Assembly (NCBI GenBank): GCA_963707505.1
Contig: CAVPQB010000004.1
Coordinates: 480,001-544,000, forward strand
Reading direction: 5' to 3'
Source: an uncultured Gemmatimonadales bacterium
Lineage (GTDB): Bacteria > Gemmatimonadota > Gemmatimonadetes > Gemmatimonadales > Gemmatimonadaceae
Length of the DNA stretch: 64,000 nt
Position 1 is the stretch's first letter. Each line of letters starts with the position of its first letter. Below, piece by piece: positions 3,411-53,156 of the stretch. The translations under genes and the position numbers were made by a program. The notes under the pieces are model-generated. The model ran no database searches, was not told the DNA's origin, and worked only from the letters and a program-made list of their open reading frames with translations.

Positions 3411-6400
3411 GTGAAATTTACAGGGTGGGTCTCCCCCGGGCGCCCTTCGCGAGCGCGCCGGAGAGAGCACGCGTCCCCTGGCTCACGGGGACTGCGCCGG
3501 GCCCGCGCATCGGTCCCGTCCTTTGCCGGCCGGATCGCGCTCGCGATCGTGCTTGCAATCGTGCTCGCCGGCGTGGTCGCGTCCCCGCTCCGCGCGCAAG
3601 TAAAGGACACAACTGTGCATGCGCCGTCACGGCTGCGCGTACGCATCGGACGGGATACGCTCCCGCTTCAGCTGCCAACGGTCCAGACTCGCACAGACGC
3701 CGCCCTCTACCGGGAAGCAGAAGCCCAGATCCAGGCAGCTCGCGCCACAGCCTTCCAGTTGAACAGTCGTTCGATTCTGGAATCGGTCTGGGGGCAGGTT
3801 GCGGCGCAGAATTTCGCGACAGGTCGGCTCCAGCCGCTTTCCGCCGAAGACGCCCAGCAGCGTAAGGCCCGCGAGCCCGTCAAGAATGAACAACTGTTCG
3901 GCGACTACGCCGATCTGGGCATTCAGGTCGATTCCAGGCTGGAGTTCCGCAACGAGAAGGATGAAACCAACCGCTGCCAGGGCGTCAGCTACTTCCTCGC
4001 AGCCAACACCTGCCGTTCCGCCTTCGAGCCTACGCTGGATTTCCAGTATGCTCTCCGGTCCGCCGGCGTCGTCGCCGACCGCGTGCACGTGAACGTCGAT
4101 TACGACTCGCAGCGCGAGTTCGACGCGTCCAACACCATCTCGATCGCCTTCGAGGGCAAGCCGAACGAGTTCATGCAGAAGCTCGAGGTCGGTAACGTCA
4201 CCTTCCAGCCGCCGCCGTCACGCTTCATCACTGCGGCCATCCCGAGCGGCAATTACGGCGTACAGGCGGTCGCCAATCTCGGTGAGGGAATCAAGCTGCG
4301 CAGCATCGTCGCGCAGCAGAAGGGAAACGTCGTTCGCGATCGTGTGTTCACCGTCGGCGACCACGTTCTGCAGGCGGTCGATCGCACAGTCGAAGACTAC
4401 CAGTTCGAGCCGCGCCGGTTCTTCTTCACCGTCGATCCAAAGCTGTTCGCTGGCTATCCGAACATCGACATCCTCAATCGGCAGCAGATGACCCGACTGG
4501 CTGCTGCACTTCCCGATACGTTGCGTCCGGCGACGATCTATGTATACCGCCTTCTGATCGGCGGTCAGCCGCCCAATCCGAACGGTCCGCAGTTCCGCAT
4601 TATCGGTGATCCTCGTTCGCAGAAAGGCCAGGTGTACGAGCTGCTGCGCGAGGGAGTCGACTATTACTCCGACCCGTCGCGGCTCTGGATCGCGCTCGTT
4701 CGTCCACTGTCACTCAACAACGAGCGGCTCGTAGTTGCATATCGCGTTCGTGTCGGCGGCGTCGTGACGACTCATGCAACCACTGGCGGAACTCCCGACC
4801 TCGAATATTCCCCGGCGCACGATCAGTTCGCGAATCTGCTGTGGGATCCGAACGTTCAACCGACCGACGCTGCGTTCCGGCGCGAGATTCGTTCAGTGTA
4901 TCGACTCGGTGGCAGCGACGTCGTGCGCCAGAGCGTGAGCGTCAAGGTCGTTACCGGAAACGCGACCGATCAGGAAAAACCGGTGACGGGGCGCGCAGCA
5001 ACCTATCTGCAGCTGTTCGGACTCGCACAGCCGACCAACAGCTCGACCTTCGACGTCGAGAATCGTCTCTGGCCCCGTCCGACCGACCCCAACTTCGCCC
5101 TGGGTGTCGGCGCATTTGGCACGCCCACGATTCGCGATCAGTTCCTGGTCTTTCCGTCGGTGCGTCCATTCGCGAGCAACGGCATGGCCGGTGCAGGGAA
5201 TCCGCACAACGATACCGTTTACACGACGCCCGCCGATTATCTCATATCGTCGCAACGGCCCGGTGCCGTCTACCACATACGCCTGCGCTACCAGGCGCAG
5301 GGAAACGGTACCAACGGCACTCTCTCACTCGGCGCTGTGCAGGTGCGGCCGAATTCGGAGCGCATTCTCGTCGACAATGTCCTGCTCGCGCGTGGCAGCG
5401 ATTACTCGGTCGATTACGATCTCGGTCGAGTGAACTTCGCGCGGCCGGACACGTTATTTCCGCGCCCGCGGCAGGTGACCGTACAGTTCGAGGAGAATCC
5501 TCTGTTCGTGGAGACTCCGACATCGATATTTGGATCTTCGCTCGAGATACCGTTGTCGAACGGCCAGATCAACCTCCTGGCGCTGTCGCAATCGCAGAAA
5601 AGCACGTATACGCGCCCCACGCTCGGCTTGGAGCCGCAATCGATGCTCATCGCGGGCATCAACGCCACGATGAATTTCGATGCCGACGAGCTCACCAGAC
5701 TGGTGTCGAAGCTGCCGTACGGTCACACCGACGTTCCCTCCCATGTTTCGCTCGCCGGTGAGTTTGCCGCGAGCAAGCCGCAACCGAGCGCTGGACAGCA
5801 GGCGTACCTCGAATCGTTCGAGGAAGCTGGCGGTCTTGATGTGCTGCTCGGTGACCAGTACTGGTATTACAGCAGCCAGCCAGCAGTCGCGCATAATGTG
5901 CTCGCGAAATACGGCTCCAATCTGCTCGACATCAATCACGCGACTCAGCTCGCATTTCAGACCAACATTCGAGATTCGCTCGGCAAGCAGATTCAGTTCA
6001 CGATCGACAAGATCGATCCGGAGGTTGCGTTCTCGGGTGTCGGCGTCGCTGCGCCTGAGCAGATACTCTGGCTCACCATGTATCCGCTGTCACGCGGGTT
6101 GCGCGATGACCAGAACAGCAATGCGCACTGGAGCACCGGGGTGACGCAGACGGGTCGCCGATGGCGCTCCATCCGAACATCGCTCAGCCCTTCGGGCGCT
6201 GATGTGTCGCGCACTGAAAATGTCGAATTCTGGGCGCTCGTAGATACCTCCGCGGTCGGCCGATCGCGCAATCCTACCCTGGTGTTCGACGTGGGAGAGA
6301 TCTCCGAGAACTCGGTTGTATTTCAACCCGATACTATTCGCATCCAGGCGGTGAACGCCGTGCTGCGCGATACCGTGATGTCAGGGCGTCGCCTTTCCGG

Positions 6401-9813: not shown

Positions 9814-10734
9814 ATGAATCGACTGTTCCTCTATCTTGCCATTTTCCCCATTCTCGCCGGTTGTCAGAAGTCCAAAACGGGATTCGATGGCGAAGCGGCC
9901 TACCGCTACGCCGGCACTCAGGTATCATTCGGACCGCGAATTCCCGGCTCGCCAGGCTGGCAGAAGGCCGGTGACTGGATCGTCGCCCAGATGCGCACCC
10001 GCGCCGACACCGTCATCGAGCAGCGCTGGATGCACACGCTCGCCAACGGCGATAGCATCCCCATGCGAAATATCCTCGCGCGATTCCGCCCGCAGGCTAC
10101 CGATCGCGTGCTCTATCTCACACACTGGGATACCAGGCCAATCGCCGACAGCGACCCCAACCCGGCCAACCGTACCAAGCCCATCCTCGGCGCAAACGAC
10201 GGAGCTTCCGGCGTCGGTCTCTTCGTAGCACTTGGCGACCTCCTCAAGAAAACTCCCCCGAACGTCGGCGTCGATCTCCTATTCGTCGATGGCGAGGATT
10301 ACGGCAGCTTCGGGCCGCCCAAGGATGTCGATGTGCTGATAGGATCGACGTACTTCGCATCGCACCTCCCCTCGCCCGGCTACCAGCCGATCTTCGGCGT
10401 TCTCTTCGACATGATCGGCGACAAGGACCTCAACATCTACGAGGAGCAGAACTCCATCGCGCGTGCGCCTGAGGTCGTGTCACGCGTATGGAAGACCGCC
10501 GACGATCTCGGTTACTCCCAGTACTTCCTGCCACAGATGGGCCAGGCGGTCACCGACGATCACATCCCCCTCCTCCAGGCCGGCCTTCGTGTGATCGACG
10601 TCATCGACATCGACTACGAATCTCCCAGCAACAACTATCACCACACCCTCGCCGACACGATGGACAAGATCTCCGCCAAGTCACTCGGCGTAGTCGGCGA
10701 CGTCGCAGCCGCCCTCGTGACCAACCGCCCGTAG
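9814..10734 (+). CDS. M28-family lipoprotein, probable zinc-type (animal-type) glutaminyl cyclase
   Basis: Lipobox ILAG|C. Motifs GPRIPGS, HWDTRP, GANDGASGV, DGEDYG, DMIGD, DDHIP and HHT match the glutaminyl cyclase subfamily of M28. Confidence 0.8.
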   Translation: MNRLFLYLAIFPILAGCQKSKTGFDGEAAYRYAGTQVSFGPRIPGSPGWQKAGDWIVAQMRTRADTVIEQRWMHTLANGDSIPMRNILARFRPQATDRVLYLTHWDTRPIADSDPNPANRTKPILGANDGASGVGLFVALGDLLKKTPPNVGVDLLFVDGEDYGSFGPPKDVDVLIGSTYFASHLPSPGYQPIFGVLFDMIGDKDLNIYEEQNSIARAPEVVSRVWKTADDLGYSQYFLPQMGQAVTDDHIPLLQAGLRVIDVIDIDYESPSNNYHHTLADTMDKISAKSLGVVGDVAAALVTNRP

Positions 10735-14597: not shown

Positions 14598-14600
14598 CAG

Positions 14601-18959: not shown

Positions 18960-19631
18960 TCACACCTTGCGGCGGCGACGGAAGAGAGGAACGATTCCAA
19001 TCAGGCCTGTGCCCAGCAGCGCCAGCGAGCTTGGCTCCGGTACTGTCGAAGCAGGTCCACGCGCGAAGCCATGTCCTGTGACGGCCACCGTGGATCCGGT
19101 AAGTCCTGTGGTTTGATCGTTGATCGACAAGTCGTCCACGCCGAAGCTTAGCGTGGTGCCATCCGCGAACGTAAAGTTGTGAGGCGTGTTGGAGAAGTCG
19201 ATAAAGACGTTTCCATGCGTGGCATTCGACAGATTACCGGTTATCATCGCGGTGTACAGGCTGTTGCCTACGACACCTGTGGGCTGCGTGAAGTTCACGA
19301 AGAGCGCGAAGTTCTGACCGGTGTAATCGTGGGTGCCATCGAGGAGCGTAAACGATCCGAGGTTGTTGAGGTTCGGCGTGGCTGGCGCCGTACCAATGGA
19401 CACCAGATTATCCGCCGGATTGCTGGTCACGTTGAATGTCGAGCCTGCGTACGACAACTTGCCTGTGTTGTTCAACAGCCCCGTGCAGTCGGTCGGTGCG
19501 GTTGCTGAAGTATAGAAGCAACCGAAGGTGTTGCCGGTAAACGTTATCTGCGCTCCTGCCGCACTACCGGCCATCAGGATTGCACCGCCGGCGATTGCTA
19601 CCGCTCTGACTCCTCTCCCAAGTTGCTTCAT
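18960..19631 (-). CDS. PEP-CTERM sorting-domain surface protein
   Basis: Signal peptide SAAGA|Q; Thr/Asn/Gly-rich beta domain; C-terminal VPEPSSLALLGTGLIGIVPLFRRRRKV; GGAG upstream. Confidence 0.92.
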   Translation of the reverse strand: MKQLGRGVRAVAIAGGAILMAGSAAGAQITFTGNTFGCFYTSATAPTDCTGLLNNTGKLSYAGSTFNVTSNPADNLVSIGTAPATPNLNNLGSFTLLDGTHDYTGQNFALFVNFTQPTGVVGNSLYTAMITGNLSNATHGNVFIDFSNTPHNFTFADGTTLSFGVDDLSINDQTTGLTGSTVAVTGHGFARGPASTVPEPSSLALLGTGLIGIVPLFRRRRKV

Positions 19632-20678: not shown

Positions 20679-23600
20679 CTACTTGGCGTCCAGCTTTCGG
20701 CCCGCGTTGAGATGATCGAAGTTCAGGATCGTGTTGAACACGAGGGGATAGCTGCCGATCGTCTCGCCGCGATAGATCGGGTTGTTCGCGAACAGGACCA
20801 CATGTCCCTTCTCGCAGCGGAACGTCGACCACGACCGGGCGTCTGCGCGATGTCGCTGCCGCCGTCGAGCAGGCCGGAGACGAGCAGGTCGCGCTGATCG
20901 GTGAAGCGTACCGCAACGCGCGGCCGCTGTCGGGCGGGATGATCGATGAGCGGATTGCGCAGCTGCTCGTCGGTGATCGGTGCCGCCTGCCACGGCTCGA
21001 CGGTCACGCGAGGCGGCGCCATCGTTGCGCGGTGCAAGCGAGGTCGGCCCTGCGGCACGTCGGGATCGTCCGCCGTGCCGCGGCCCGTCGGCCGCGCACC
21101 GCGCTCGCCACCGCCGAAACGACTTCCCCGCCGCGACCGCCGCGGACGTTGCTCACGCTGAAGCTCTCGCCCTCTTCGCTGTACAACGGCGAGGCTGTCC
21201 GACACGCCGTACACGATCGGGCTCGCGTCGTCCACGATGCGCGTGCGCAGCAGGGTACCGACGACCTCGCCGCGTCCTGCCTGATTCGCGCTGACGCCGT
21301 TCGCGAGTCCGAACTGGATCGCGAAATCTGCGGTGTTCTGGACAGTGACGAGCACGCCGCCGCGCTGCACGAAGCCTTCGAGATTCTCGAACTCCCTGGC
21401 AGCCGAGTCCGGGACGGATGTCGTCGGTCTGGCCCAGCGTCCCGATGTTCGGCGTGAGCGGAGTCTTCTTCCACGGCATCGGATTCCGCCACATCGGCAT
21501 CCCTGGACGATCGCCTGCGCGTTCCGCCGGCCGGCGGAAAAAGAATCACGTCGTACTTCGCGTTCAGATTCGGATTCTTCGCGACGTCCTGACGTCTGAT
21601 GTAGTCGTACGGGATGTGGAGGACGTCGAACGCCTGGCGCCACCAGCCTTCGGTCTGCGTGCTCGGCCACGTGTGCAGGATCGCGACGCGCGCCGCGCGC
21701 GCGGGATGCATTGCAACGATCGGCGCGGCACGGAATCGCGTACGCTTGAGACACCGAGCTCGCGCGCCGCCTTGTCGAGATCGCCGCTGCGACGTTGCCG
21801 ATGACGAACGAGCCGCGATCGAAGTGCTTGCCCGTCGGCCTCGAACGGCTCTTCGGCGGCCTGGAAATCGGCGTTACGCGAGCCGATAGCGCAGCGTCGC
21901 GAGCGCGTTGTCGCCGTTGTGGTTGATCGCGAACACGGTCCCGGTGCCGGTCACGCCGCCCGGCGCCTGTGATCGTCGCCGGTGACGCGCTCCATCGGCA
22001 CGTCGAGCACCTGTCGGATCCGACGACGCGCACCGCGCTGCACGGCGAAATCCTCCGGGAAAGGTCCAGCCGGTGTCGTCGTACGGAGTCTTCTGCGGAT
22101 CGTTCGGGCTCCAGTACTGATAGTCGAGCAGCGCGTCGGCGATGCGCGAGTACGGCTGGTCCATGCGGATGATGTAGCTGCCGGCCGGAAACTGCGCGGC
22201 GTTTCGGTGCGCGCGTAGTACTGGGTGCCGCGGGCTGCGCGCTGCTGCGACTGCGGTCCGCGCTGTCGCGCCGCGTCTCGCGCGCCCCGCGCTGCGCGAG
22301 CCCTCGGCACCTGTGCACCGTGAACGGCGCCGTCGCGCGCGAGATCTCGACGTGCTGCTTCTGGAGGATCGCGCAGCAGCTCGGCCTGCGCGCCGGGACG
22401 CGGGTCATCCGCGGGAAGTACGTACGCGGCCGGCCCTTCGGTGTTCGCCTTCAGAATCGAGCGCTTGCTCTTCTCGTAGAAGTTCTCGAGGAACTGCTGG
22501 CGATTGTTCGCGAAGTAGCTGAGCGAGACGAGCAAGCCGGTCTGCTCGTAGTTGTTGTTGTTGCGGAGCGACCACTTCACGCGCGGCAGCGGCGGATTCT
22601 GGCGGTACCACGTCCGCGCCGTCTCGCTCGGCGACAGCGTGCGCTCCAGCGTCTCGGCCGTGCCGCCGTTGCCGAACGTCTCGTACAGGCGGCTGATGCC
22701 GTTGTGCGTCGCGGCCATGAACATCAGGTAGCCCGGCGACCACGTGTCGAAATCGCCGTGCGCGAAGACGCCCGGCATGCCGAGGCGCGTCATCTCCTGC
22801 ACGTTGTTCCAGCCGATCATCTGCCATTCGTTCGTGAGCAGCGGATCGAGCCACGCGTTGTACGGCCCGTCGCCGATCGTGTTGTCGTACAGGTACGGCA
22901 CCGACTCGTGCAGATCGTGCAGCACCTGCGCTTTCCAGTCGACGTACGTGTTCAGCACGTTCTGCGAGAGCTTGAGCGTCATCCCCATCGCGTCGCGGTT
23001 GTTGTCGTGCGCGACGTAGTGGCCCCAGTAGATGAGATTGCGGAGTACGTCTCGTTCGGGATGCGCCATGTGCCAGCGGAACAGATCGACCATCGCGGTC
23101 GCGCCCGTCGACTTCGACGATCGGCGTGATGAGCGTGATGAGGTGGTCGCGGATGTTGCTTGATGTACGGGCTCTCATCCACGGCGAGCCGATAGGCGAG
23201 CTCCATCAGCGCCGTCGGCGCGCCGGACTCGGTCGAGTGGATCGTGCCCGTGATGTAGTAGACCGGCGTCGTCGTCGCGCGACGATGCTGCGCGGCCTCC
23301 GCGTCGTTCATGTTGATCGTGCGCGGATCGGCGAGCTTCGCGAGCTTCGCCTTGTTCGTCGTCGAGCTTGGCCATCAGCGACTCCGACGCGACCGCGACG
23401 GCGATCATCTCGCGCCCTTCTTCCGTCGTGCCGATCGAGTACACTCTGCACGCGCGGACTCGCCTTGGCGAGCAGGCGCATGTACGCGTAGACCTCCTTC
23501 GAGTACGGGAGATTGTCGCGCGCGCCGGCGATGTCGCCGAGGACCGCTTTCGGCGTCGGGACGGTCTTCGACGCCGGCAGATAGTCGACGAGCGGCGAGA

Positions 23601-23791
23601 GGAAGAACGGCTCGGTGGTGTACTCGCGAATCTTGTCGCGTGTACGCGTCATCGATCGGCTGATTCGGATCGCGCCCTGGTGCCGCCGTCGATATTTCGA
23701 CGCTGCTGGCCTGGGGCGCCTGTGCGCGCATGGCGACTGGTGCGCCGATCAATGGAAGCAGCAGCGCGACGGCGAGTGAGCGACGATCCAT
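20679..23791 (-). CDS. Large secreted M14 zinc-carboxypeptidase-family protein, fragmented by more than 10 apparent frameshifts
   Basis: Consecutive ORF pieces in different frames: signal VAMRA|Q, SIGTTEEGRE, GTIHSTE, VEVDGRDR, HDNNRD, LHDLHE, LYETF, MDQPYSRIADALL, C-terminal LFANNPIYRGET. Confidence 0.8.
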
Positions 23792-23932
23792 GAATATTCT
23801 CATCGAATGGGCTGTGGAAATGGCAGGGGAAGCGACGGTGGCAAAGCAGAATCGGTCATCCGGACGTACAGAATGCAGATTATACCGGCGATACGGAAGC
23901 ACCGCCGCACACTTACCTCTGGAAAAATCTGA

Positions 23933-26066
23933 ATGATTATCGATCGGGTAGCCCGCCGCCTAACGCTGCCACGCCTGCTAGGTCTCGCAACTGCCGCCGG
24001 GATCCTGATCGGGTCTCCCGTTCGTGCGCAGGATCGCCTGAGGGCGATGCCGGAGTACGCGCGTTATCACAGACTCAGCGCAGAGATATTGAGCTCGGTC
24101 ACGAGCGCCGCCATCCGGCCGGTATGGGTCGATAGCGGAAAGGCGTTCGAGTATGAGTTTGGTGGCCAGCGGTACCACTATGACGTCGCCAAACGCGTGG
24201 CAACTGTTTCCGGCGCCGTCGATGCGGCCGCCGAGCTGGCAGCGCGGCGCGCGCGACTCGCCGGTGGCCCGGAGCGTGGACGCCAATTCGAGTCTGCGTT
24301 GTCTCCGGACGGCAAGCTCAAGGCGTTCTACCGCGACCGCAACATGTGGCTCAGCGATGCCAGCGGAGCCGGCGAGATTGCGCTCACCACCGACGGAAGC
24401 GTCCCCAATCGCATCAAGAACGGCACAGCTTCGTGGGTGTATGGCGAGGAGCTGGATCAGCGCACCGCCATGTGGTGGTCGCCGGACGGGTCGAAGATCG
24501 CCTATTATCGCTTCGACGAGAGCAAGGTCCCCGATTACTACATCGGGATGAATCAGACCGGGCTGCACACGACGGTCGATGTCGAGGCCTTCCCTCAACC
24601 CGGTGTGCCCAATCCGATCGTCGACCTGTTCGTGTATGACGTCGCCAAAAAGACCACGACTCGCATCGATGTGCGCGATGGAAAACCATTCGATAATACC
24701 GTCGTCGGCCATTACGTCTATCACGTGGACTGGAGTCCCGACGGACACGAAATCACCTTCAATCGCACGAACCGCCGCCAGAACGTTCTCGAGTTCACCG
24801 CGTGCGATCCCTCCAGCGGAAAATGCCGAGTGGTGGTGCGTGATGCATGGCCCGCAAGCTGGGTCGCGAACAATCCGGAGATGACGCTACCTCGCCGACG
24901 GCAGGCGCTTTATCTGGGAATCGGAGCGTAACGGTTTCCGTAATTATTATCTGTACGACCTGACGGGCAAGCTGCTCTCGACTCTCACCAGCAACCAGTT
25001 CGACGCAGGAGAGATCGCCCGCGTCGACGAGAAGGCGGGCGTCATGTACTACACCGCCCACGATGGTGACAACGCGATGAAGATGCAGCTGCGTCGCGTT
25101 GACCTGAACGGCCGTAACGACCGTCGGCTCACCGATCCTGCCTTCGATCATACGATAAGCTTCGCACCGGACGGAAAATACTTTGTCGACGTCGCGCAAA
25201 CTCACGATCGGCCGCCGATAGCACAGCTCGTTACAGCCGCCGGTAAGGTCGTTGCCCAGATCGCCAGGAGCGACATGACGAAGTTCGACCAGCTCGGTCT
25301 CAAGCGCGTGGAAATGTTCAGCTACAAGGCGGGTGACGGAACGACGATGCTGAACGGGATGCTGCACTTTCCTTCCAACTTCGACCCGAACAAGAAGTAT
25401 CCGCTGCTCGTCAGCGTCTATGGCGGCCCCAATACCAACGGTGCAAGTGAAACCTTCACGCTTCCGAATCGACTCACCGAGCTCGGATTTCTGGTAGCCA
25501 CCCTCGACTCACGAAGCGCCGACGGCCGCGGCAAGCATTTCCTCGACGCCATCTACGAGAAGCTCGGCATCGTCGAGATCGACGATCAGGCCGCGGGTGT
25601 CCGTGCACTCGACGCGCGCCCATACGTCGACCGCAATCGGGTTGGAATTTACGGCACGTCGTACGGCGGATACGCGTCGCTCATGTCACTGCTTCGCTAT
25701 CCAGATCTCTTCGCAGCGGCATGCAGCATGTCGCCGCCGACGGACTGGCGCAACTACGACACCATCTATACCGAGCGATATATGTGGATCCCGGAGGAAA
25801 ACGCCGCGGGCTACGATGCAGGAAGCGCGATGACCTACGCATCCCAGCTCAAGGGGCGGCTGATGCTCTACTACGGAACCGCCGACAACAATGTCCACAA
25901 CTCGAACACCATGCAGATGATCACCGCGCTGCAGAGGGCAGGCAAGAGCTTCGATGTACAGGTCGGGCCGGACCAGGGTCATTCCGCCCTGAATTCCGAG
26001 CGGATGATGGAATTTTTCATCGACAATTTGCCGGCCAACACGGACGTATCTGTTGTCACCCACTAG
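23933..26066 (+). CDS. Secreted S9B dipeptidyl-peptidase IV-like protein, one apparent frameshift at ~24887
   Basis: Signal SPVRA|Q; WVYGEEL, WWSPDGSKIAY, GTSYGG nucleophile motif, GTADNNVH, GH. The bridging frame reads YLADGRRFIWESERNGFRNYYLYDL. Confidence 0.9.
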
Positions 26067-29291: not shown

Positions 29292-30689
29292 ATGAAGCTC
29301 TACATAATCTGCGCGATCGCGGCCTCGCTCTCGATTCCAGCGCCGCGAGCGTTCGCAGCAGCGGCTGCGGCAGATAACTCGGCCACACGCAGTGGTGCTA
29401 CATCCGCGCTCTTCGGTCCGGCGACCGCCGATCCCGCTGACTCTCTGTATCGCAGCGCTCGCGATGCGCTCACCAAGGGCGACTACGATCGCGCTGCGAA
29501 GCTGTTCCACGAAGTCGGCGTACGCTATCCACAGTCGTCGCTGTTGCCGGATGCGATGTACTACGAGGCCTTCGCTCAGTATCGCTCAGGCGGCGCTGCG
29601 TCGATGCGCACGGCGCACAACATTCTTGCAACGCTCCAACAGCGTTTCCCTGCCTTTGGCCGTCGCAGCGACGCAGCCACGCTCGCGACGCGAATATGCG
29701 GAGAGCTCGCACAACAGGGCGATGCTACCTGCGCTGCAAGTATAGCGGCCCAGGCTTCCGGAACTGCTTCGGGCAGTTCCACTGCGCGCGGTGCTGCGTC
29801 GGCCAAGTGCGTCAACGAAGACGACGATGAGCGTGTTGCCGCCCTCAACGCGCTGCTGCAGATGGACGCGGATCGTGCCGAGCCAATCCTCGAAAAGGTG
29901 CTCGCGCGCCGGGATGAGTGCTCCGCGTCGCTTCGCAGAAAGGCTGTATTCCTCGTGGCCCAGAAGCAGTCGCCACAAGCCGTGGACGTATTGCTCCACG
30001 TAGCACAGACGGACCCCGACGCCGATGTCCGTGGTCAGGCTGTCTTCTGGTTGTCTCAGGTGCACAGTGACCGCGCTGTGAGTGTGCTGTCGGACATACT
30101 GCACAAGTCGTCCGATCAGGAACTCCGCGACAAGGCGCTCTTCGCGCTTGGCCAGTCGGACGGCGAACGTGGGACGAGCATTCTTCGCGCATACGCGTCC
30201 GATGCGTCGCAGCCGAGCGCACTACGCAGCAAGGCGATCTTCTGGCTCGGCCAGCAGAAGGGTGGAGTGCCGAATGCCCAGTTCCTTCGTGACCTCTATG
30301 CAAAGCTCACCGACGATGATCTCAAAAACCAGACGCTTTTCGCAATTTCGCAGGGCTCGTCGCCCGATCGCGCAGAATGGCTGCTGCAGCTGGCGCAGCG
30401 CGGTAATGAGAGTGTCGAGAACAGAAAGCGTGCGCTCTTCCTCGCCGGTCAGGCTGGAGCTTCGATCCCGCAGCTAAGCCGTCTCTACGATGCGCTGCCG
30501 CCGGGCGAGCTTCGGGAGCAGATGATTTTCGTCTTCTCTCAGAGTCGCGAGCCTGCTGCGCTCGACAAGCTCATTTCCATCGCGCGCACCGACAAGGATA
30601 CCGAGTCGCGCAAGAAGGCGATCTTCTGGCTCGGACAGTCACACGATCCACGTGCAATCAAGGCCATCACCGAGGTACTCGACAAGTGA
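29292..30689 (+). CDS. Secreted protein with TPR/BamD-like N-terminal helices and HEAT-like repeats
   Basis: Signal peptide; ADSLYRSARDAL...YPQS..LPDAMYYEAFAQY; about 8 repeats of type R.KA.FWLGQ. Confidence 0.85.
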   Translation: MKLYIICAIAASLSIPAPRAFAAAAAADNSATRSGATSALFGPATADPADSLYRSARDALTKGDYDRAAKLFHEVGVRYPQSSLLPDAMYYEAFAQYRSGGAASMRTAHNILATLQQRFPAFGRRSDAATLATRICGELAQQGDATCAASIAAQASGTASGSSTARGAASAKCVNEDDDERVAALNALLQMDADRAEPILEKVLARRDECSASLRRKAVFLVAQKQSPQAVDVLLHVAQTDPDADVRGQAVFWLSQVHSDRAVSVLSDILHKSSDQELRDKALFALGQSDGERGTSILRAYASDASQPSALRSKAIFWLGQQKGGVPNAQFLRDLYAKLTDDDLKNQTLFAISQGSSPDRAEWLLQLAQRGNESVENRKRALFLAGQAGASIPQLSRLYDALPPGELREQMIFVFSQSREPAALDKLISIARTDKDTESRKKAIFWLGQSHDPRAIKAITEVLDK

Positions 30690-31522
30690 TAGGAGATTCG
30701 ATTTTCCCCAGCGCGCGAACAATTCTCGCGCTCGCAGTGCTCGCGGCCACATCCGTCTCTGCCGGTGCGCAGTCAGGCCAATCGATCGCGGACCGCGTGC
30801 GTTCGGCGCCGGATGGAACAGTGCGGTTCACATTCCGCGCCCGTCCGGATGTATGTGGCTCCGGCAATTCGGTTTATGTCGGCAACAATGGAAGTCGCAA
30901 TACGTCCGGACAACGCAACACCGCAGATGTCGAATGGGACGCCGATTGCGGGCGCGGTCCGGTGCGTATCGTGCTCGACGTGCACGATCACACGGTGACG
31001 GGCCTCAGATCATATGTCGGCGGACGCTGGCGTCCGGTGACCGGCGTCACCGATCTTGGCGACCTCGCGCCACAGACCGCCGCTGCTTACCTCATTGCAC
31101 TCGCGAAGCAATCATCTGTCGCGGTTGGGAAAAAAGCCATCTTTCCTGCCACGCTTGGCGACAGTGTGGTCATCTGGCCTCAGCTGATGCAGATCGCGCG
31201 TGACGCAAGCATACCCAGCGAGATCAGACGTGACGCCGTCTTCTGGCTCGGCCAGATGGCCGGCGACACTGTTACCGCAAATCTCTCTCAGTTGGTCGCA
31301 GAAGACACTGTCGATCGTGCAGTCCGCGAGAGCGCCGTATTCGCACTATCGCAGCAACCCCACGGCGAGGGAGTGCCGGCTCTGATTCACGTCGCCCAGA
31401 CCAATCGCGATCCGTCCGTACGGAAAAAGGCGCTCTTCTGGCTCGGACAGTCGAACGATCCACGGGCCCTTACATTGTTCGAGAATATCCTGGCCGGTTC
31501 GGGCAAGTCCGGGCGACAATAG
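30686..31522 (+). CDS. Secreted HEAT-like repeat protein
   Basis: GTGA overlap; signal SAGA|Q; repeats RRDAVFWLGQ, RESAVFALSQ, RKKALFWLGQ. Confidence 0.85.
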   Translation: MIGDSIFPSARTILALAVLAATSVSAGAQSGQSIADRVRSAPDGTVRFTFRARPDVCGSGNSVYVGNNGSRNTSGQRNTADVEWDADCGRGPVRIVLDVHDHTVTGLRSYVGGRWRPVTGVTDLGDLAPQTAAAYLIALAKQSSVAVGKKAIFPATLGDSVVIWPQLMQIARDASIPSEIRRDAVFWLGQMAGDTVTANLSQLVAEDTVDRAVRESAVFALSQQPHGEGVPALIHVAQTNRDPSVRKKALFWLGQSNDPRALTLFENILAGSGKSGRQ

Positions 31523-31609: not shown

Positions 31610-32158
31610 ATGTTCTCGCTCAACAGGTACGTACTCGGGATCACGTTGGGTCTTGCAGTCGCAGCGTCGTCTGCGCCTGCTGCACAGGCACAGCAATACT
31701 CGATGAAGAATATGATCCACTACAAAAAACCGTCAGACTCCGAGCTGCACAACAAGCTGACTCGCGAGCAGTTCGACGTTACGCAGAACGCAGCTACAGA
31801 GACGCCGTTCCACAACGAGTACTGGAACAATCACAATCCGGGGATTTACGTCGACATAGTTTCCGGCGAGCCGCTGTTCAGCTCTACCGACAAGTTCGAT
31901 TCTGGAACGGGTTGGCCGAGTTTCACCAAGCCTCTCGTATCTGCGAACATAAAGACCGATACCGACCATCTACTCGGCTACGCCAGAACAGAGGTTCGAT
32001 CAGCGCACGCGAACTCTCATCTGGGCCATCTGTTCGACGACGGTCCCAAACCAACGGGAAACCGTTACTGCATGAATTCAGCGTCGCTCCGCTTCGTTCC
32101 CGTAGATCAGCTCCAGGCGCAGGGCTACGGCGAATATCTGAGTCTATTCAAGAAGTAA
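31610..32158 (+). CDS. msrB: Methionine-R-sulfoxide reductase with signal peptide
   Basis: [39 protein letters not shown]; leader ending AAQA|Q. Confidence 0.93.
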
Positions 32159-32324: not shown

Positions 32325-34958
32325 TTAAGAAGTTCCAGCCGCGCGGTTCGTCGACCGAATCTTCACAGTGGTATCAAGCTCGTCCAGCGTCTGCAATATC
32401 TTCTGCCGTAAATCGGCGCCAAGGTTAGCGTTCGAATTGACGAACGAGCGCACTGTCGCAGCAGCCTCCGGCGTCGTCTGGCCGCCGATGAAGCCGCCAA
32501 GCCACGAGCCGATGAAAAATATGCGTCGGTTGCGCTGCAACCATGGCAGCGTATCCAACGCGGGCTTGAGATACTCGAGCGTGAGAGCCTGCTGATCGAT
32601 CTCGTTGAATGCGCCGAGGCTCGATGTAGCCCATTCCTCGTTGAGATTCGGATCGCTCAGATAGCGTGTGAAGTACTCGCGCTTGACGTTCGAGTCGGGT
32701 GTCGCTGCTCTGGCGATGAATGCGTACCGCTTGCCCTCGCTCGTCGAGTCACTCCTTGTTTCCGCCGCCAGCCTGCCCGTCGCGGTCGGTGCACCTGTCG
32801 CGACAAGATGAGTAATGATCGCCCATCGCGTCGGCGCCTTGAGTGGTGCGCCGGCTGCAGAAGCGCTGTCGAGAAGATGATCCAGATACTCGAGGCCAGC
32901 AGGCGTGTGTGTTACTCGGATCAGTGCGTCCAGATTGGGCTTTCGAATCTCATACGGCCGTGCAGTGTCGCTTTCGACGGATCGAAGTGAGGTCTCCAAT
33001 CCGGGTAGCAGTGCGGCACGTTCTGTCGGCGACAGGTACGCCTCCGTTGCACGCGTTACATGCCGCAATTGTGCGCCCAGGATCTGCTCGTCCTGCTCTG
33101 CCGGCAATGCTCGCTCGGCGATCGAGATGAATTCGGCGGGCGTGAGACCTCGGCGGCGCACCAACTCCCACAGTGCGTCCCATCCCATCGCGCGTGTTAA
33201 TGGATCCGTCAGTGTTCCAACACTGTCCGCCAGCCAGTGACCGCTCGCCGAGTCGGGAATGACGAGTGCGTACGCGTTGTCACCGGCATTGGCATAGACG
33301 AATTCCGGCGCACGCGGGTTGTTGGCGAACTGCGCGACGGTGCTATCGGAGTCCAGATTGATGAGCAGGCGATCGGTTCGACCTCCGGGATATCTCACGA
33401 GCACTTGCGTGCGAATCGGCCACGGCCCTGCGCCGGAGATTCGTTGAGCCGGGTGCTGCGCCAGAGACAGACTCTCGAGCACGCCATCGCGCACTTTCAG
33501 ATGTTGGTCGATCACCGGCATGCCAGGACGCAGAATATACGCCTCGCCCCACTTCTTGAGCGGACGCTTCGCCGCGGCTCCGACCGATGACAGAAGATCC
33601 TGCCACGTCGCGTTACCATACGCGTGCTCTACGAGATACGCATGCAGTCCGCGTCTGAACGCGGAATCTCCCACGAGATAGTTCAGCTGCTTGATGACGC
33701 CCGGCGCCTTGTTGTACACAATCGCGCCGTAGTTGCTCTTCGCCTGGTCCAGATTCGCCAGCGATTGCCAGATCGGTGTGGTTCCTTCTGTTCGGTCGAC
33801 ACCGTAAGCGCTCGGCTTGTTCTGCAGGTAGAACGTTTCCCATGCATTCGATCGCGGCTCCAGCGATGCGCGCATCTTCGCTGCCATGTACGTTGCGAAG
33901 CCTTCCTTCAGCCACAGATCGTCGAACCACTTCATGGTGACGAGGTCACCGAACCACTGGTGCGCAACTTCATGGTAAATCGTCGCCTCGCGCGAGATGC
34001 GCTGCGGCCTCGTCGCGCGCTCACGAAATATGAAGCTGTTTTCGTTGTAGAAGATCGCGCCCGGATGCTCCATTCCACCGAACGGAAAGGCTGGTGCCAG
34101 CACGAAGTCGAGCTTGGGCCATGGGTACGGAAAGTTGAAATATCCCGCGAGCCACTGCATCGCTCGGCCGTTGGCTGCGATCATCGAATCAGCTTCTGCT
34201 TCCCTGGCCCGAGAAGCGCGCACGTACATCGTGATCGGATGGCCATCTACCGAACGTGTCACGCGAGCCCACGGACCGGCTGCGAATGCTATCAGATATG
34301 TGCTGATCGGCTTGGTGCGTGCGAAGTGAACTGTCCTGGTCGTCGCTGACGAGTCCGTCTTTTGCACGGTGCCATTGCCGACTGCATTCCACTTATCGGG
34401 AATGGTGAGAGTCAGTGCGGTGCGTGCCTTGATGTCCGGCTGGTCGAAGCAGGGAAAGAGTTGATTTGCGTCCGACGGCACCAGTAGCGTGTACAGATAG
34501 TCCGCGCCGTCCGTAACGTCGTGGTATCGAATCACGCTTGCACCCGCAGGTGCGATGAGCGCCGAAAAACTCATCGATACGCTGTTCTCTCCGCGCTTGA
34601 GTGACGCGGCCGGAAGCCGGATGTGCATTCCGTTGCTGACATCCGGCGGCAGTGTCACGCCGTTCAGAATCAGAGTGCCAAGTTGCGGGCCGCGGAAATC
34701 GACTATCGCGTCGCCCGCGCCTGAACGCGTGAATGCAATTGTGACATGACCACGAGCAGTGTCGTGCGCAGTCACATCCAGCGACAGATCGTAGCGTACG
34801 TTACTGATTCGCGACGCGCGATAATCCGCAAGCTGCCGCGAGATGCCTGCACCCATCAGAGCTGACATGTTCGACGATGACGCCTGCTGCGCCGACGTCG
34901 AGCTCGTGACGAGGAGTGCCGGAGCGGCTACCGCGCCGAAAACAGTCGAGAATCGCAT
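32325..34958 (-). CDS. pepN: Secreted M1 aminopeptidase N-like metallopeptidase
   Basis: FPCFDQPD, GGMEH, HEVAHQWFGDLVT...WLKEG, IVYNK; signal STSA|Q; ERAP1-like helical C-terminus. Confidence 0.9.
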   Translation of the reverse strand: MRFSTVFGAVAAPALLVTSSTSAQQASSSNMSALMGAGISRQLADYRASRISNVRYDLSLDVTAHDTARGHVTIAFTRSGAGDAIVDFRGPQLGTLILNGVTLPPDVSNGMHIRLPAASLKRGENSVSMSFSALIAPAGASVIRYHDVTDGADYLYTLLVPSDANQLFPCFDQPDIKARTALTLTIPDKWNAVGNGTVQKTDSSATTRTVHFARTKPISTYLIAFAAGPWARVTRSVDGHPITMYVRASRAREAEADSMIAANGRAMQWLAGYFNFPYPWPKLDFVLAPAFPFGGMEHPGAIFYNENSFIFRERATRPQRISREATIYHEVAHQWFGDLVTMKWFDDLWLKEGFATYMAAKMRASLEPRSNAWETFYLQNKPSAYGVDRTEGTTPIWQSLANLDQAKSNYGAIVYNKAPGVIKQLNYLVGDSAFRRGLHAYLVEHAYGNATWQDLLSSVGAAAKRPLKKWGEAYILRPGMPVIDQHLKVRDGVLESLSLAQHPAQRISGAGPWPIRTQVLVRYPGGRTDRLLINLDSDSTVAQFANNPRAPEFVYANAGDNAYALVIPDSASGHWLADSVGTLTDPLTRAMGWDALWELVRRRGLTPAEFISIAERALPAEQDEQILGAQLRHVTRATEAYLSPTERAALLPGLETSLRSVESDTARPYEIRKPNLDALIRVTHTPAGLEYLDHLLDSASAAGAPLKAPTRWAIITHLVATGAPTATGRLAAETRSDSTSEGKRYAFIARAATPDSNVKREYFTRYLSDPNLNEEWATSSLGAFNEIDQQALTLEYLKPALDTLPWLQRNRRIFFIGSWLGGFIGGQTTPEAAATVRSFVNSNANLGADLRQKILQTLDELDTTVKIRSTNRAAGTS

Positions 34959-35124: not shown

Positions 35125-35565
35125 ATGCTCCGCATATCGGCTTTGATCGCAGCAGTGACACTTACGGGCGCTCTGGTCGCGCATCCTGCATCAGCGCAGG
35201 ACACGACTCACCACGGTGGCGTCAATGGCGCCGCTCGAGCGGTCAGCGGCGCCGCAAAGAGCACCGGACGCGCCGTGAAATCCGGCGTAAAGACCGTCGG
35301 AAGCAAAACGCACAAGGTTCTGAAAACAGCGGGCCGGAGCACGAAATCGGCTTTATCGCATGCCGTCGGCGACACGATCCACGATCCGAATCACAAGCCC
35401 GGAGGACTCAACAAGGCGGCGCGCGACGTGAGCGCATCCATCAAGCACGTCGGACGGTCGGCGAAGGCGGGCGTGCACGAGGGAGCCAGCGACACCCACA
35501 AGGCGTTGCAGAAGACCGGCAACGACGTGAAGAAATCCGTCGGCGATACGTCACACAAGTCGTAA
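35125..35565 (+). CDS. Secreted basic Lys/His/Gly-rich protein with two internal helical repeats
   Basis: GAGG RBS; signal PASA|Q; repeats GGVNGAARAVS...THKVLKTAG...VGDT and GGLNKAARDVS...THKALQKTG...VGDT. Confidence 0.8.
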   Translation: MLRISALIAAVTLTGALVAHPASAQDTTHHGGVNGAARAVSGAAKSTGRAVKSGVKTVGSKTHKVLKTAGRSTKSALSHAVGDTIHDPNHKPGGLNKAARDVSASIKHVGRSAKAGVHEGASDTHKALQKTGNDVKKSVGDTSHKS

Positions 35566-41076: not shown

Positions 41077-41256
41077 GAGCTATTCCACACACTTCCGTTG
41101 ACAACGGTCGTCGCGACTGGTGCTGGTGCTGGTGCTCGTGTAGGTGTCGGCGATGCAGCGCGATGTTTTGCCCCATCCTACGCGCTCGGGCCACAGCCGG
41201 TGCTAGCGCATGATGGAAGATTGCTTTCCGACCTCCGGACAGCATCGACGACCACC

Positions 41257-43575
41257 GTGACGACACTGGCATTCATACTTGCGGCAACGCTCGTCGCCCA
41301 GCAATATCAGCCCGAAATTCGATATGACTCGCTACGGGCTGAGCCGGTAATTCTTGAAGTACAGATCGGTACCGTTGCTACGGCAGTCGTCGCCGCGCGT
41401 CGCATCGGCGACGTAGCTCTGCTCCCAGTGGCCCCTGTACTCGCGCTGGCAGAGCTTCATCGAGCAGCTATGTCCCACGAATACTTGCCCACCGATTCGT
41501 TGGCGGTGATGCTCCACGCACCAATCATCGTCGACTGGGACGATCTCACCGCCACCATCGTCGATGATGGCGGATTGCCAGTAAGCCGCCGTGCTGCACG
41601 CGAGCGCAACCGCGCTCTGCTCAACGCTGACAAACAGGATCTACAGATGTCAGAGGCAATCACCAGATCAACGCCGCTGCTGCCGTCCAGCGTGATCGTG
41701 GACTACGACGCGGCGACATCCGGCATGAACGCCCTTGCGCAGACGAACATACACCTCGGCATTGGCGCCAACCTCCTCGGTGGTGCGCTCGACGTCGATG
41801 TGCTGAGTCCAGTGAATCACCATCCGGGAATTTCAGCCTGGCACTGGGATCGAGAGCTTGCCGGCAGCTCCTTTCTTCGCCATGCCCGCCTTGGACGGGT
41901 CGCTCCCGACCACGGCTCCGTGATCGCCGATGGAATATTCCTCTCCAGCCAGCCGGCCATCCACGACGACTCTCCGTCCGTTATACTCGCGGGCGCCCCT
42001 GGCCCCGGCTGGGACGTCGAAGCGTACCGCGACGACGTGCTCGTGTACTCCGGCCAGACGGATTCGACTGGCCGATACACCATCTCGATTCCGACCTCGC
42101 GTGGCTCCAATCGCCTTGCTGTTTCAGCGTACGGCACAGCAGGCGAACAACGTTCGGTGACTCGCTACGTGTCGGTCGCCGACAATGCGTTGCCCCCGCG
42201 CACCGGTGCGTACAACGTTGCGGTTGGTCGCTGTGCGATCACAAGCTGTGACTACGCCGCAGAATCGACGCTTGGATACGCACCGTTCCCGCGCCTTACG
42301 ACCGGCGCAGGTCTGCGCGTCGCGACAAGATCGCACCAGATGACGATCGAGCCATCGTTACTTCTGGCGACGCATCTGCGTGACGACCTCAACGCATCTT
42401 TCAGCTACGCGCGCGCAGCGACGAACGCCGACGTGCGCTATGCACCGTCCCCGATGTTCGACGCATCGATTACATATGCGAATACGCGGCTTACATCCGC
42501 GTCAGCGCTATTTCCCATCCGCCATTCCACCGCAACCGCGAGCGTGATCTGGCGCGTACCAGGAGCGCCATATGCCGCGAGCGCGACTCTCGCCGCCGCA
42601 GGCTACCGACTGACAGATACGCAGCGGCTGCACCTTTTCATGTCGCTGCCTCTTGGATCGCTGTATTTGCGTCCGTTCGTCGATGTTGGGCGCCAGTTCA
42701 ACACGGCGTCGACGTCACTCGGGCGAGGTCTGTTGGCGGAATCCCCGATCCCGGCACTGCTCCCGATCGGTAGCCGCGTCCGATCAGGATTTGCAACCGC
42801 CGGCGCCGGTGACAATTACATCACGATCTCCGCGCCATTCACCCGCTCGGGGCAACTCGAAATTGGAGTCGAGTGGCCGGCCAGTACGGCCGCGCCGCGC
42901 CTCACCGTCGCGCTCAACATGGTGACGCGTGCGGCCAGATATCAGTTGCGATCCACGGACGGATCCGATGCGTCGACCGTACAGTCATTGAGTGGCTCGC
43001 TCGTGGTCATGCCGAGCACGCACGTCGCCTCATTGTCGCCATCGCAGCTGCGAGGACGTGCCGGCATCGTCGGACTTCTGTTTCTGGATGAGAACGGCAA
43101 CGGCGTCCGGGACGCGACTGAGCCCACACTTCCGCATATCTCGATTTCGGCGGGCGACGTGCAGGTCGAAACCGATTCAGTGGGAGAGTATCAATTCAAT
43201 GACGTGGTCCCTTACGCAACGGTCGTGCTGAGTGTCGATTCGCTTGCCCTTCCATCGCCCGACATGACGGGGCACGCGGTGCGAGTGACGCCACTTCCCA
43301 ACGGCATCACTCGCGTGGATCTCCCCATCACGACGCGTCAGCGCTCACGCCTTCTGTCGAGTTCCTGCTGCGGAATCGACGGACTCTCCCAGGACACGCA
43401 GCGCAGCGACCCGCCGCCCATCCATGGCGACTACCTCGAGCCCGGCGTTCGGGATCCGAACCCTGTCACCGACCCGAGGGAGCCGCCCCAGGCGCGCGAA
43501 TACATACCCGCCCAGTGTGGACCAGTCTCCGTCGGGGATTTCCAGCTCGTAATCCGACCGTGCATCGATGAGTGA
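41257..43575 (+). CDS. Secreted usher-like outer-membrane protein with C-terminal SdrD-B/carboxypeptidase-regulatory-like domain
   Basis: GTG 41257 with signal TLVA|Q; plug-like GWDVEAYRDDVLV...GRYTISIP...N.L.V.AYG..GE; beta-strand-rich body; GLLFLDENGNGVRDATEP. Confidence 0.6.
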   Translation: MTTLAFILAATLVAQQYQPEIRYDSLRAEPVILEVQIGTVATAVVAARRIGDVALLPVAPVLALAELHRAAMSHEYLPTDSLAVMLHAPIIVDWDDLTATIVDDGGLPVSRRAARERNRALLNADKQDLQMSEAITRSTPLLPSSVIVDYDAATSGMNALAQTNIHLGIGANLLGGALDVDVLSPVNHHPGISAWHWDRELAGSSFLRHARLGRVAPDHGSVIADGIFLSSQPAIHDDSPSVILAGAPGPGWDVEAYRDDVLVYSGQTDSTGRYTISIPTSRGSNRLAVSAYGTAGEQRSVTRYVSVADNALPPRTGAYNVAVGRCAITSCDYAAESTLGYAPFPRLTTGAGLRVATRSHQMTIEPSLLLATHLRDDLNASFSYARAATNADVRYAPSPMFDASITYANTRLTSASALFPIRHSTATASVIWRVPGAPYAASATLAAAGYRLTDTQRLHLFMSLPLGSLYLRPFVDVGRQFNTASTSLGRGLLAESPIPALLPIGSRVRSGFATAGAGDNYITISAPFTRSGQLEIGVEWPASTAAPRLTVALNMVTRAARYQLRSTDGSDASTVQSLSGSLVVMPSTHVASLSPSQLRGRAGIVGLLFLDENGNGVRDATEPTLPHISISAGDVQVETDSVGEYQFNDVVPYATVVLSVDSLALPSPDMTGHAVRVTPLPNGITRVDLPITTRQRSRLLSSSCCGIDGLSQDTQRSDPPPIHGDYLEPGVRDPNPVTDPREPPQAREYIPAQCGPVSVGDFQLVIRPCIDE

Positions 43576-48072: not shown

Positions 48073-48090
48073 AGACGGTTAGCGACTCAG

Positions 48091-48130
48091 ACAAAAGAAC
48101 GGCGGCCCCAGCGGTCGCCGTTCTTTTGTT
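48091..48130 (+). terminator. Intrinsic terminator after pilA
   Basis: ACAAAAGAACGGCGGCC-loop-GGTCGCCGTTCTTTTGT, with an A-tract before and a T-tract after. Confidence 0.85.
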
Positions 48131-48266
48131 GGTGTAGATCGACCACACGCGAAGCCGGGTCGAGGTACCAATGTTTAGTCGGCGGCATGCCATGGCGTCG
48201 TGATGTGGTTCTCGTGCAGTGTTTCGGATTAGCGTCCTGATCTGCCATCGGTTGTATCGTCGGGGC

Positions 48267-48623: not shown

Positions 48624-48712
48624 CGTTACAGTTGCACGACGTCGCGAGGAAATGACGCCGGCCGGTCTCTTCGGCTTTATCCATCTGCTTGGGCCGGTAG
48701 TACTGTATCGGC

Positions 48713-52055: not shown

Positions 52056-52056
52056 C

Positions 52057-52671
52057 ATGGCAATCGGCGCAAACATGACCCAGCGCGAACAGGCGCTGGT
52101 CGGATCCGGAATCATTGCGATTCTGCTCGCTGTGGCGTTCTGGTGGTTCATCTTCACGCCGAAGGCCGTGACGATCGGCTCGCTCAGTGCCCACGTCGAT
52201 TCCGTCGAAACGAACAATCGCAAGGCGCGTGTCGCCATAGCTCGCGGCACCGTGCAGCAGTTGCAGACCGAAGCTGCGCAATACCAGAAGAATCTGGACA
52301 TGATGCGCGAGCTCGTACCAACGTCGAACGAAGTTCCTTCGCTCCTCGAGAATGTATCCACGGCGGCACGGCGGGTGGGACTCGACCTCGCGTCGGTCGA
52401 GCCGGTCCCTGTGATTCCTGGAGAGCAGTTCGATACGTACCGCTACAAGGTGTCGGTGATGGGCGGCTATCACGAGCTCGCCGAATTCCTCACGAACGTC
52501 GGCTCGCTCAACCGCATCATGGCGCCACTGGGGCTGGATCTCAAGATCCACCCGGGCGAGAAAGACAAGTCGCATCAGAAGGCTGGTGAGTCACTGCTCG
52601 ACGCAAGCTTTCAACTCCAGACCTACGTCGCACGCACAACTCCGCTTGTGCTGAGCAAGGAGACAAAATGA
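52057..52671 (+). CDS. pilO: PilO
   Basis: TM plus coiled coil; LVPTSNEVPSLL, GGYHELAEFL..VGSLNRI. Confidence 0.9.
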   Translation: MAIGANMTQREQALVGSGIIAILLAVAFWWFIFTPKAVTIGSLSAHVDSVETNNRKARVAIARGTVQQLQTEAAQYQKNLDMMRELVPTSNEVPSLLENVSTAARRVGLDLASVEPVPVIPGEQFDTYRYKVSVMGGYHELAEFLTNVGSLNRIMAPLGLDLKIHPGEKDKSHQKAGESLLDASFQLQTYVARTTPLVLSKETK

Positions 52672-53156
52672 CGACGCACAAGCGTAACGGCGTTGTGAAT
52701 CATCCTCTCGCGATTGCAGCGACGTTGGTGATGGCACTCGCCTTGTTGCTGCTGGTCAAGGGTGATGCACATGCCCAGGCTGATGATGTCGCAGACGCCG
52801 GCAGCAGTCGGGACAGCGCGACCACTGTCACGTTCAATCGCGAAGTCTTTCGATACGATCCGGATGGCCGGCGTGATCCGTTCGTATCGCTGGTCAAGAG
52901 CAGCGAGATCCGGCCTACGCTATCGGATCTGCGCCTGACAACCATCGCATTCGATCCCCTCGGACGGAACTCTGTCGCAGTTCTCCGTGATCTCGGGACG
53001 AAGGAGCAGTACCGCGTCAAGGTCGGCACCGCACTGGGCCGCATGCGCGTCGTTCGAATCGATCCAAAGGTCGTCACGTTTGCGCTCGAGGAATTCGGAT
53101 TCAGTCGTCAGGAAACGCTCGCGATCGGTGATACCACAATAAAGAGGACACCATGA
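52668..53156 (+). CDS. pilP: PilP-like protein
   Basis: Lies between pilO and pilQ; F.Y...GRRDPF motif; YRVKVG..LG...V..I. Confidence 0.7.
   Translation: MTTHKRNGVVNHPLAIAATLVMALALLLLVKGDAHAQADDVADAGSSRDSATTVTFNREVFRYDPDGRRDPFVSLVKSSEIRPTLSDLRLTTIAFDPLGRNSVAVLRDLGTKEQYRVKVGTALGRMRVVRIDPKVVTFALEEFGFSRQETLAIGDTTIKRTP

Follow-up and report, generated by a model that had tools for sequence, protein, structure and literature searches.

A predicted glutamine-first secretome and its candidate capping enzyme, a putative lipoprotein glutaminyl cyclase encoded beside sprA, in a Gemmatimonadaceae bacterium

Does a bacterium outside the Bacteroidetes start its exported proteins with glutamine and cap them? 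The question is raised by a stretch of 64,000 nucleotides (the window) that corresponds to positions 480001-544000 of contig C4 in the genome of an uncultured Gemmatimonadaceae bacterium. In this window a preliminary description had noticed a glutaminyl-cyclase-like gene at 9814..10734 and a series of unrelated proteins whose predicted signal peptidase I (SPase I) cleavage sites expose Gln at position +1. These features resemble the Q-rule of Bacteroidetes, where most predicted SPase I substrates are Gln-first and a lipoprotein type II glutaminyl cyclase (QC) is present, as exemplified by PgQC (PG2157) of Porphyromonas gingivalis; the main text of PMC10653852 (2023) states that the rule is exclusive to Bacteroidetes. 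The host was suspected not to belong to Bacteroidota, and the relatives of the 9814..10734 protein at 96% identity indeed come from Gemmatimonadaceae and Gemmatimonadetes. Our analysis supports the earlier interpretation within limits (capping and protection are what we infer, the enzyme is a His variant, and the gene does not predict the rule): on balance this organism probably has a Gln-first secretome capped by the 9814..10734 cyclase, probably as a shield against its own exported peptidases.

We called 3272 genes in the whole genome (3.66 Mb, six contigs, completeness 83.3%) with our own gene caller, and scored signal peptides with a home-made three-region model (not SignalP) that weighs the n-, h- and c-regions together with positions -3 to -1 but leaves +1 unweighted. 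Predicted lipoproteins and proteins with at least two further membrane segments were left out of the genome-wide candidates, which numbered 229 at a score of at least 6 and 355 at a score of at least 4. Proline is barred at +1 of SPase I sites, a rule for which no source was found in the literature; counts given with the Pro bar disallow Pro at this position. The Gln values obtained with this scorer are lower bounds, and false positives (anchors, prepilins) occur among its calls.

With the Pro bar, Gln occupies +1 in 145/229 candidates at the higher cut-off (63%, confidence interval 57-69) and in 189/355 at the lower one (53%, confidence interval 48-58); without the bar the former count is 138/229. 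The background frequency of Gln is 3.0%, and Gln occupies offsets +3 to +5 in about 4% of the higher-scoring candidates. When the 20 residues round each site were shuffled 20 times, Gln turned up at +1 on average in 18.2 and at most in 26 of the 229. With site uncertainty built into a mixture fit, Gln+1 comes to 0.84 (score at least 6) and 0.72 (score at least 4), with Asp and Glu together at 0.00-0.01 and Ala at 0.03-0.04. Where the site posterior is at least 0.9, Gln is found at +1 in 34/43 cases. Counts that lean less on the model agree: Ala stands before the first Gln past residue 15 in 221/309 proteins, compared with 12% for Gln of mature regions, and Gln follows Ala-x-Ala-type motifs in 281/2289 instances in candidate N-termini, compared with 314/9070 in their mature parts and 221/6851 in signal-less N-termini. 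Many of the non-Gln calls are ambiguities between A/QA and AQA/ or membrane anchors. Thus Gln at +1 characterizes most predicted SPase I substrates of this genome and is far from background (145/229 against 3.0%), while the earlier wording, nearly every substrate, is not borne out genome-wide. The pattern holds regardless of protein family and apparently of destination: clustering to non-redundant families leaves Gln+1 in 90/150; Gln+1 proteins were found on all six contigs, and in the window they span peptidases, MsrB, PEP-CTERM, SprA and HEAT proteins. It is very likely that the true cleavage sites are the predicted A/Q ones. Several exported peptidases clearly break the rule (C1:166975, C1:233, C4:110907 and C6:656537, with sites such as LAA/TDTYPRQ and ITG/DTYPRQ); their N-termini possibly have a role of their own.

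The gene at 9814..10734 (plus strand) encodes a 306-aa protein, P0001, which sequence and fold place with the type II glutaminyl cyclases of the PgQC kind; the original designation as glutaminyl-cyclase-like was therefore apt, as both its best sequence and its best fold matches are solved glutaminyl cyclases. An N-terminal lipobox (LAG/C17, with C17 invariant in 46/46 aligned sequences) precedes the M28 domain, and by this predicted lipoprotein the genome appears to encode an extracytoplasmic glutaminyl cyclase. The best PDB matches are the cyclases of P. gingivalis, Tannerella forsythia, Parabacteroides and Bacteroides, with E-values from 4e-63 (6QQL) to 1e-54. The predicted model (pLDDT 93.3) gives Foldseek TM-scores of 0.86-0.87 to Bacteroidota QCs, followed by the Fimbriiglobus and Acidobacteriales cyclases; its top 12 matches are all bacterial QCs or re-annotated orthologs of them, in agreement with the alpha/beta-hydrolase-like QC fold. 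Across the solved set (PgQC 6QQL/7CJE, TfQC 6QRO, PdQC 3TC8, BtQC 4FUU/7D1D, Fimbriiglobus 7D1B and Acidobacteriales 7D18) TM-scores range over 0.79-0.87, and P0001 shares with these enzymes the Asp/Asp/His Zn ligands, the Asp-Gly pair, the Arg-Pro-x-x-Asp loop and the lipobox, whereas its structural identity to the Bacteroidota QCs is 33-39%. Type II cyclases outside Bacteroidota were already known from the PDB titles of 7D18 and 7D1B; NCBIfam holds no model for this cyclase.

The motif residues of P0001 are D129-G130, E161-D162, D199, D248-D249-H250 and H277. The Zn-ligand and catalytic positions D129, D162, H277 and E161 are kept in 81/81 sequences (the Zn ligands of PgQC are Asp149, Asp183 and His299), and D199 is invariant in 46/46. 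Of the features by which passages of PMC7948796 set bacteroidal QCs apart from aminopeptidases, P0001 has a Gly after the bridging Zn-Asp (G130, 81/81), Asp as the third Zn ligand (81/81) and the Arg-Pro-x-x-Asp loop, Arg128-Pro129-x-x-Asp132 in PgQC (R108 and P109 in 81/81, D112 in 71/81). The same passages characterize M28 di-zinc aminopeptidases by Asn or Asp after the bridging Asp, a Glu-Glu pair and a Tyr before the last His; at those places P0001 has Gly, Glu-Asp and His. A survey of M28 genes in this genome returned 21 matches, of which 17 were examined after short or split ones had been omitted. Among these 17 the Asp-Gly and Glu-Asp motifs were seen solely in P0001; the other 16 showed neither, with D-D, D-N or D-P where the motif could be read.

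To place the enzyme in its lineage, we compared its distribution with that of the unrelated type I (plant-type) cyclase. A type II ortholog was identified in 127 of 151 Gemmatimonadota genomes (129 matches minus two at E ~1e-4). Type I cyclases were searched with PF05096 in 68 of the 151, and strong matches were found in 18/24 genomes without type II against 8/44 with it (two weak matches uncounted); related genomes are not independent in these counts, and the swap is seen in genera of five families. The two unrelated folds are thus complementary in distribution, and one or the other was found in 145/151 genomes. The main text of PMC5837995 describes a similar situation in Bacteroidetes, with animal-type and plant-type cyclases divided by lineage and little overlap. 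Of six type I proteins inspected, three have a lipobox-like N-terminus, and the start was unreadable in the other three. One relative of the same genus (G070, C26:154004-157183) has its type I gene and a DPP IV-family gene on one strand, some 1.6 kb apart. Same-class relatives, sampled at 100-200 kb per genome or pair, show Gln+1 in 31/73 candidates where only type I was found, 12/34 where only type II was found and 20/52 where neither was found, with mixture estimates of 0.57-0.60.

The class boundary within the phylum provides a further contrast. Families f10-f12, which lie outside the class of this organism, possess the type II gene in 17/17 genomes, with Trp at the position equivalent to residue 276 in 8/8, and in four f11 and f12 loci the gene still lies between sprA and pilB. 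The predicted SprA of these families does not start with Gln in the three proteins read. DPP IV-family genes (PF00930, E at most 1e-15) were found in 27/28 genomes of the own class against 3/17 in the low-Gln classes (0/14 in f10 and f12, 3/3 in f11). Therefore the rule tracks DPP IV-family peptidases better than it tracks the cyclase gene, with f11 as a partial exception. S46 dipeptidyl peptidases do not track the rule inside the class (0/7 in the own family), and none was found in this genome (83% complete). Its predicted exported peptidases include the products of 6 DPP IV-family and 8 M1 genes; each of these proteins begins with a signal-peptide-like stretch, with scores that vary. No pyroglutamyl peptidase I was found in it at the same completeness.

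Several of our results weigh against the capping interpretation and have to be set beside this evidence. First, the aromatic pocket of PgQC (Trp298, Phe294, Trp193) is not preserved: His276 replaces Trp298 in 81/81 close sequences, Val174 replaces Trp193 in 79/81, and a clear equivalent of Phe294 was not found in P0001, which is therefore classed as a variant and not as a strict member of the PgQC group. His276 matches neither the Trp of cyclases nor the Tyr of aminopeptidases. Position 174 is highly variable among relatives, and 121/139 wider relatives have Trp at the PgTrp298 position. In a further sample of 20 orthologs, His was found at 276 in 4/4 of the own family, 3/10 of the sister family (Trp in 7/10) and 1/1 of f3, and in 0/5 of f5, f7, f8 and f9. 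Active-site conservation alone does not establish activity, as noted in the text of PMC5837995; the His variant nevertheless has a high likelihood of being an active cyclase. Second, Gln+1 in f10-f12 amounts to just 13/79 at a score of at least 4 and 8/55 at a score of at least 6 (815 kb, ten genomes), so that possession of the gene is not enough to predict the rule; f11 combines DPP IV genes in all three genomes with Gln+1 in 4/18, and few independent lineages underlie the class contrast. Third, on raw counts the pooled same-class relatives (63/159, 40%) lie below this genome and are not significantly different from alphaproteobacterial replicons (16/55, p=0.2), and six genomes in which neither cyclase was found still show 20/52. 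Incompleteness of 3-4% predicts 4.5-6 such genomes among 151, yet one of the six (G141) is a single contig. A weak match in G141 was considered as a cyclase remnant and rejected, being a stretch between unrelated genes (tblastn E 4.2). Likewise, a third, divergent cyclase was not found in the genomes with neither type, where 12 M28-like open reading frames (ORFs), part of their M28 genes, have aminopeptidase-type motifs or none. Finally, two of the controls, run with the same pipeline at a score of at least 4, were unfavorable. Prevotella, chosen as a positive control, gave just 8/20 (250 kb), below the 71% mean Q-value in the published Bacteroidetes figures consulted, whose species values exceed 48%; either the scorer calls too few Gln sites or the value for this species is low. 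Plasmid NC_015057.1 of the acidobacterium Granulicella tundricola (L200, L201) reached 11/17, level with this genome, and therefore the trait is not peculiar to this organism.

Among the alternatives, the one that survives best, although we regard it as unlikely, accepts the Gln+1 bias as real and assigns capping mostly to a type I cyclase or to spontaneous cyclisation, leaving the His-variant type II enzyme with a narrower job linked to SprA or the type IV pilus. It draws on the location of the type II gene, directly after sprA in 35/67 and before pilB in 46/58 related loci with enough flank, a place that is kept in the rule-less classes. It also draws on the own family, where every ortholog sampled has His and type I cyclases have strong matches in 10/15 genomes, compared with 1/14 in the sister family. 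The bias retained in the six genomes with neither cyclase would fit another capping agent too, and the text of PMC5837995 allows that Gln may cyclise spontaneously. However, the search of this genome (83% complete) found no type I cyclase, several genomes of the own family possess type II alone (G010, G029, G038, G075), most genomes that lack type II have type I instead (18/24), a pattern that a shared function would produce, and His and Trp orthologs coexist in the sister family. We regard the 9814..10734 product as likely to be the main capping enzyme here, a statement qualified by the type I cyclase that relatives within the genus have as well.

A second alternative, which we consider distinctly improbable, is that Gln at +1 reflects a preference of SPase I or a graded compositional habit, as in alphaproteobacteria, in the absence of any selection for capping. 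Three alphaproteobacterial replicons (L196-L199, L202-L204, L208-L209) already show an intermediate Gln+1 level at ten times background, the genome has two SPase I genes whose products may have preferences of their own, and the bias survives in genomes without a detected cyclase. Yet Glu, Asp and Ala, nearly absent at +1 here, are common in the alphaproteobacteria (mixture estimates of 0.27 for Asp and Glu together and 0.30 for Ala), the two sets differ in Gln+1 (189/355 vs 16/55, p=0.001), and 145 of the 151 genomes were found to have a type I or a type II cyclase. The scorer itself is not the source of Gln, because in Escherichia coli K-12 (200 kb, regions hand-picked for exported proteins) it called Gln+1 in 1/25 with Ala dominant. 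Gemmatirosa plasmids gave 5/10 and the 80 loci around the cyclase gene 31/60. Taken together, the control values indicate a trait that is graded among bacteria, with this genome at the high end. An artefact of site choice, in which the true cut falls after A-Q-A and Gln occupies -2 of the signal peptide, is scarcely credible: Gln is found at -2 in 22% of high-scoring calls and Ala, Ser or Gly comes directly after the first Gln in 141/309 proteins, but the residue after this Gln is unsuited as a usual -1 residue in the other 168/309, the +1-blind score itself selects A/Q in 138/229, and many AQA/ calls would place Pro at +1.

We therefore retain capping by the 9814..10734 cyclase as the preferred interpretation. 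By analogy with the work on P. gingivalis in the main texts of PMC5837995 and PMC10653852, precursors would be exported by Sec and cut by SPase I after Ala, exposing Gln at +1; the membrane-tethered periplasmic lipoprotein would then cyclise this Gln to pyroglutamate, and the blocked alpha-amino group would probably shield the proteins from the amino- and dipeptidyl-peptidases that the cell itself exports. In P. gingivalis, according to PMC10653852, Gln-to-Asn changes reduce protein abundance, and plant-type QCs can substitute for PgQC. Protection from peptidases is probably the selective reason, a reading held with less assurance than the capping itself.

The A/Q sites of the window that gave rise to the proposal are all in frame at the ten genes named, and a scorer blind to +1 ranks them first in eight, the M14-labelled and usher-like proteins being less clear. 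Directly upstream of the cyclase lies the sprA/sov-like translocon gene (TIGR04189; 3549..9741, plus strand), with SPLRA/Q, the Gln codon at 3597 and a posterior of 0.98 for the A/Q cut. Its originally assigned start at 3411 is doubtful; 3549 scores better, none of the possible starts scores strongly, and the SPLRA/Q motif remains in frame. The PEP-CTERM protein (18960..19631, minus strand) has SAAGA/Q (Gln codon 19548-19550, posterior 0.75), and the two-ORF DPP IV-family (S9B) peptidase (23933..26066, plus strand) SPVRA/Q (24029, 0.99). They are joined by HEAT-repeat protein 2 (30686..31522, plus strand; SAGA/Q, 30770, 0.41), MsrB (SelR; 31610..32158, plus strand; AAQA/Q, 31691, 0.96) and the PepN-like M1 aminopeptidase (32325..34958, minus strand; STSA/Q, 34887-34889, 0.53). 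An exported 146-aa protein (35125..35565, plus strand) has PASA/Q (35197, 0.96); it has no Pfam or NCBIfam family match, and is small and Gly/Ala/Lys/His-rich, with two similar halves. The protein at the PilP position between pilO and pilQ (52668..53156, plus strand; DAHA/Q, 52776, 0.56) likewise has no Pfam or NCBIfam match. PilP is usually a lipoprotein, and this protein, unlike it, has a predicted SPase I signal in place of a lipobox.

In the frameshifted peptidase-like gene that the preliminary description labelled M14 (20723..23803, left boundary approximate, minus strand; VAMRA/QAP, Gln codon 23720-23722), AQA/P (0.73) outranks A/Q (0.20) unless Pro at +1 is barred; the pieces scanned have no Pfam or NCBIfam match. 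The large CarboxypepD_reg/SdrD_B-like, or usher-like, protein (41221..43575, plus strand; TLVA/Q, 41299) has a weakly supported start and signal peptide, with a score of 0.6-1.4 that depends on the start codon chosen. The two apparent exceptions were correctly recognized as such: HEAT-repeat protein 1 (29292..30689, plus strand) is predicted to be cut at PRAFA/A, and the PilQ secretin (53153..55144, plus strand) is an exception or an unclear case with a Gln posterior of 0.10. At a score of at least 2 the automatic pipeline kept 12 candidates in the window, seven of them with Gln at +1 and the other five being HEAT-1, a PilO anchor, two prepilins and a TldD-like protein.

Frameshifts split sprA (~7392), the DPP IV gene (~24931-25044) and the M14-labelled gene (20723-23803) and do not affect the signal peptides. 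These are probably assembly errors, because the extra base near 7392 in sprA is missing from the loci of two close relatives (L001, L002). The region 3549-15797 belongs to a conserved run of lptF/G, sprA, the cyclase gene, a comEA-like HhH gene, pilB, pilT and pilC, and the association of a type IX secretion system (T9SS)-type translocon gene, sprA, with type IV pilus genes is phylum-wide, including the classes without the Q-rule. A major pilin gene and minor-pilin-like genes (47662-50136) immediately follow a PilS/PilR-like two-component pair.

How does this system compare with those already known? As in Bacteroidetes, exported dipeptidyl peptidases are the proposed threat. It differs in phylum, in the position of the cyclase gene between sprA and type IV pilus genes, in the S46 peptidase not found here, in the restriction of the rule to one class of the phylum among the genomes sampled, and in being known here by prediction from sequence. 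High Q-values outside Bacteroidetes are listed in the text of PMC5837995 for Ignavibacterium album (77%), three Chlorobi (55-67%) and four cyanobacteria (40-67%). This genome likewise has a predicted Gln+1 majority, while those outliers are described there as scattered "with no obvious pattern", in contrast to the class-wide pattern and matching enzyme distribution reported here. As advised at the outset, the literature was checked for the Q-rule in Gemmatimonadota and no report was found, subscription journals being largely outside the search. The string 'Gemmatimonad' is not named in the main texts of PMC5837995 and PMC10653852 or in three supplementary files, which also lack 'Ignavibact' (the species table may be elsewhere), and 'pyro' is not mentioned in the main text of the Gemmatimonas phototrophica photosystem paper. 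The system itself is known; what is new is the His variant, the complementarity of type I and type II cyclases, and the boundary between classes, with which DPP IV genes correlate.

If the interpretation is true, a rule shared by a whole class of a phylum common in the environment would correct the statement that the Q-rule is exclusively a Bacteroidetes trait, and users of proteomics would have reason to search such proteomes for pyroglutamate N-termini. Selective cyclase inhibitors for oral pathogens are under development on the premise of that exclusivity, according to the literature consulted. The phylum holds an internal contrast (the enzyme without the rule, either enzyme fold with it, and a peptidase family that tracks it), and therefore the protection hypothesis, so far based on P. 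gingivalis, becomes testable by comparative genomics and in cultured Gemmatimonadaceae; the class boundary makes the origin of the system testable as well. As a tentative proposal, somewhat short of an even chance, secretome-wide capping had its origin at the root of one class of the Gemmatimonadota, where exported DPP IV-type peptidases expanded too, by recruitment of a cyclase that is kept in sister classes, rule-less, beside sprA; either enzyme fold would serve for the task, which the plant-type cyclase would have taken over on several occasions. If so, the phylum would offer a natural experiment on the reasons for which the Q-rule evolves, and the rule itself would be a recurring answer to periplasmic peptide feeding and not a trait of Bacteroidetes.

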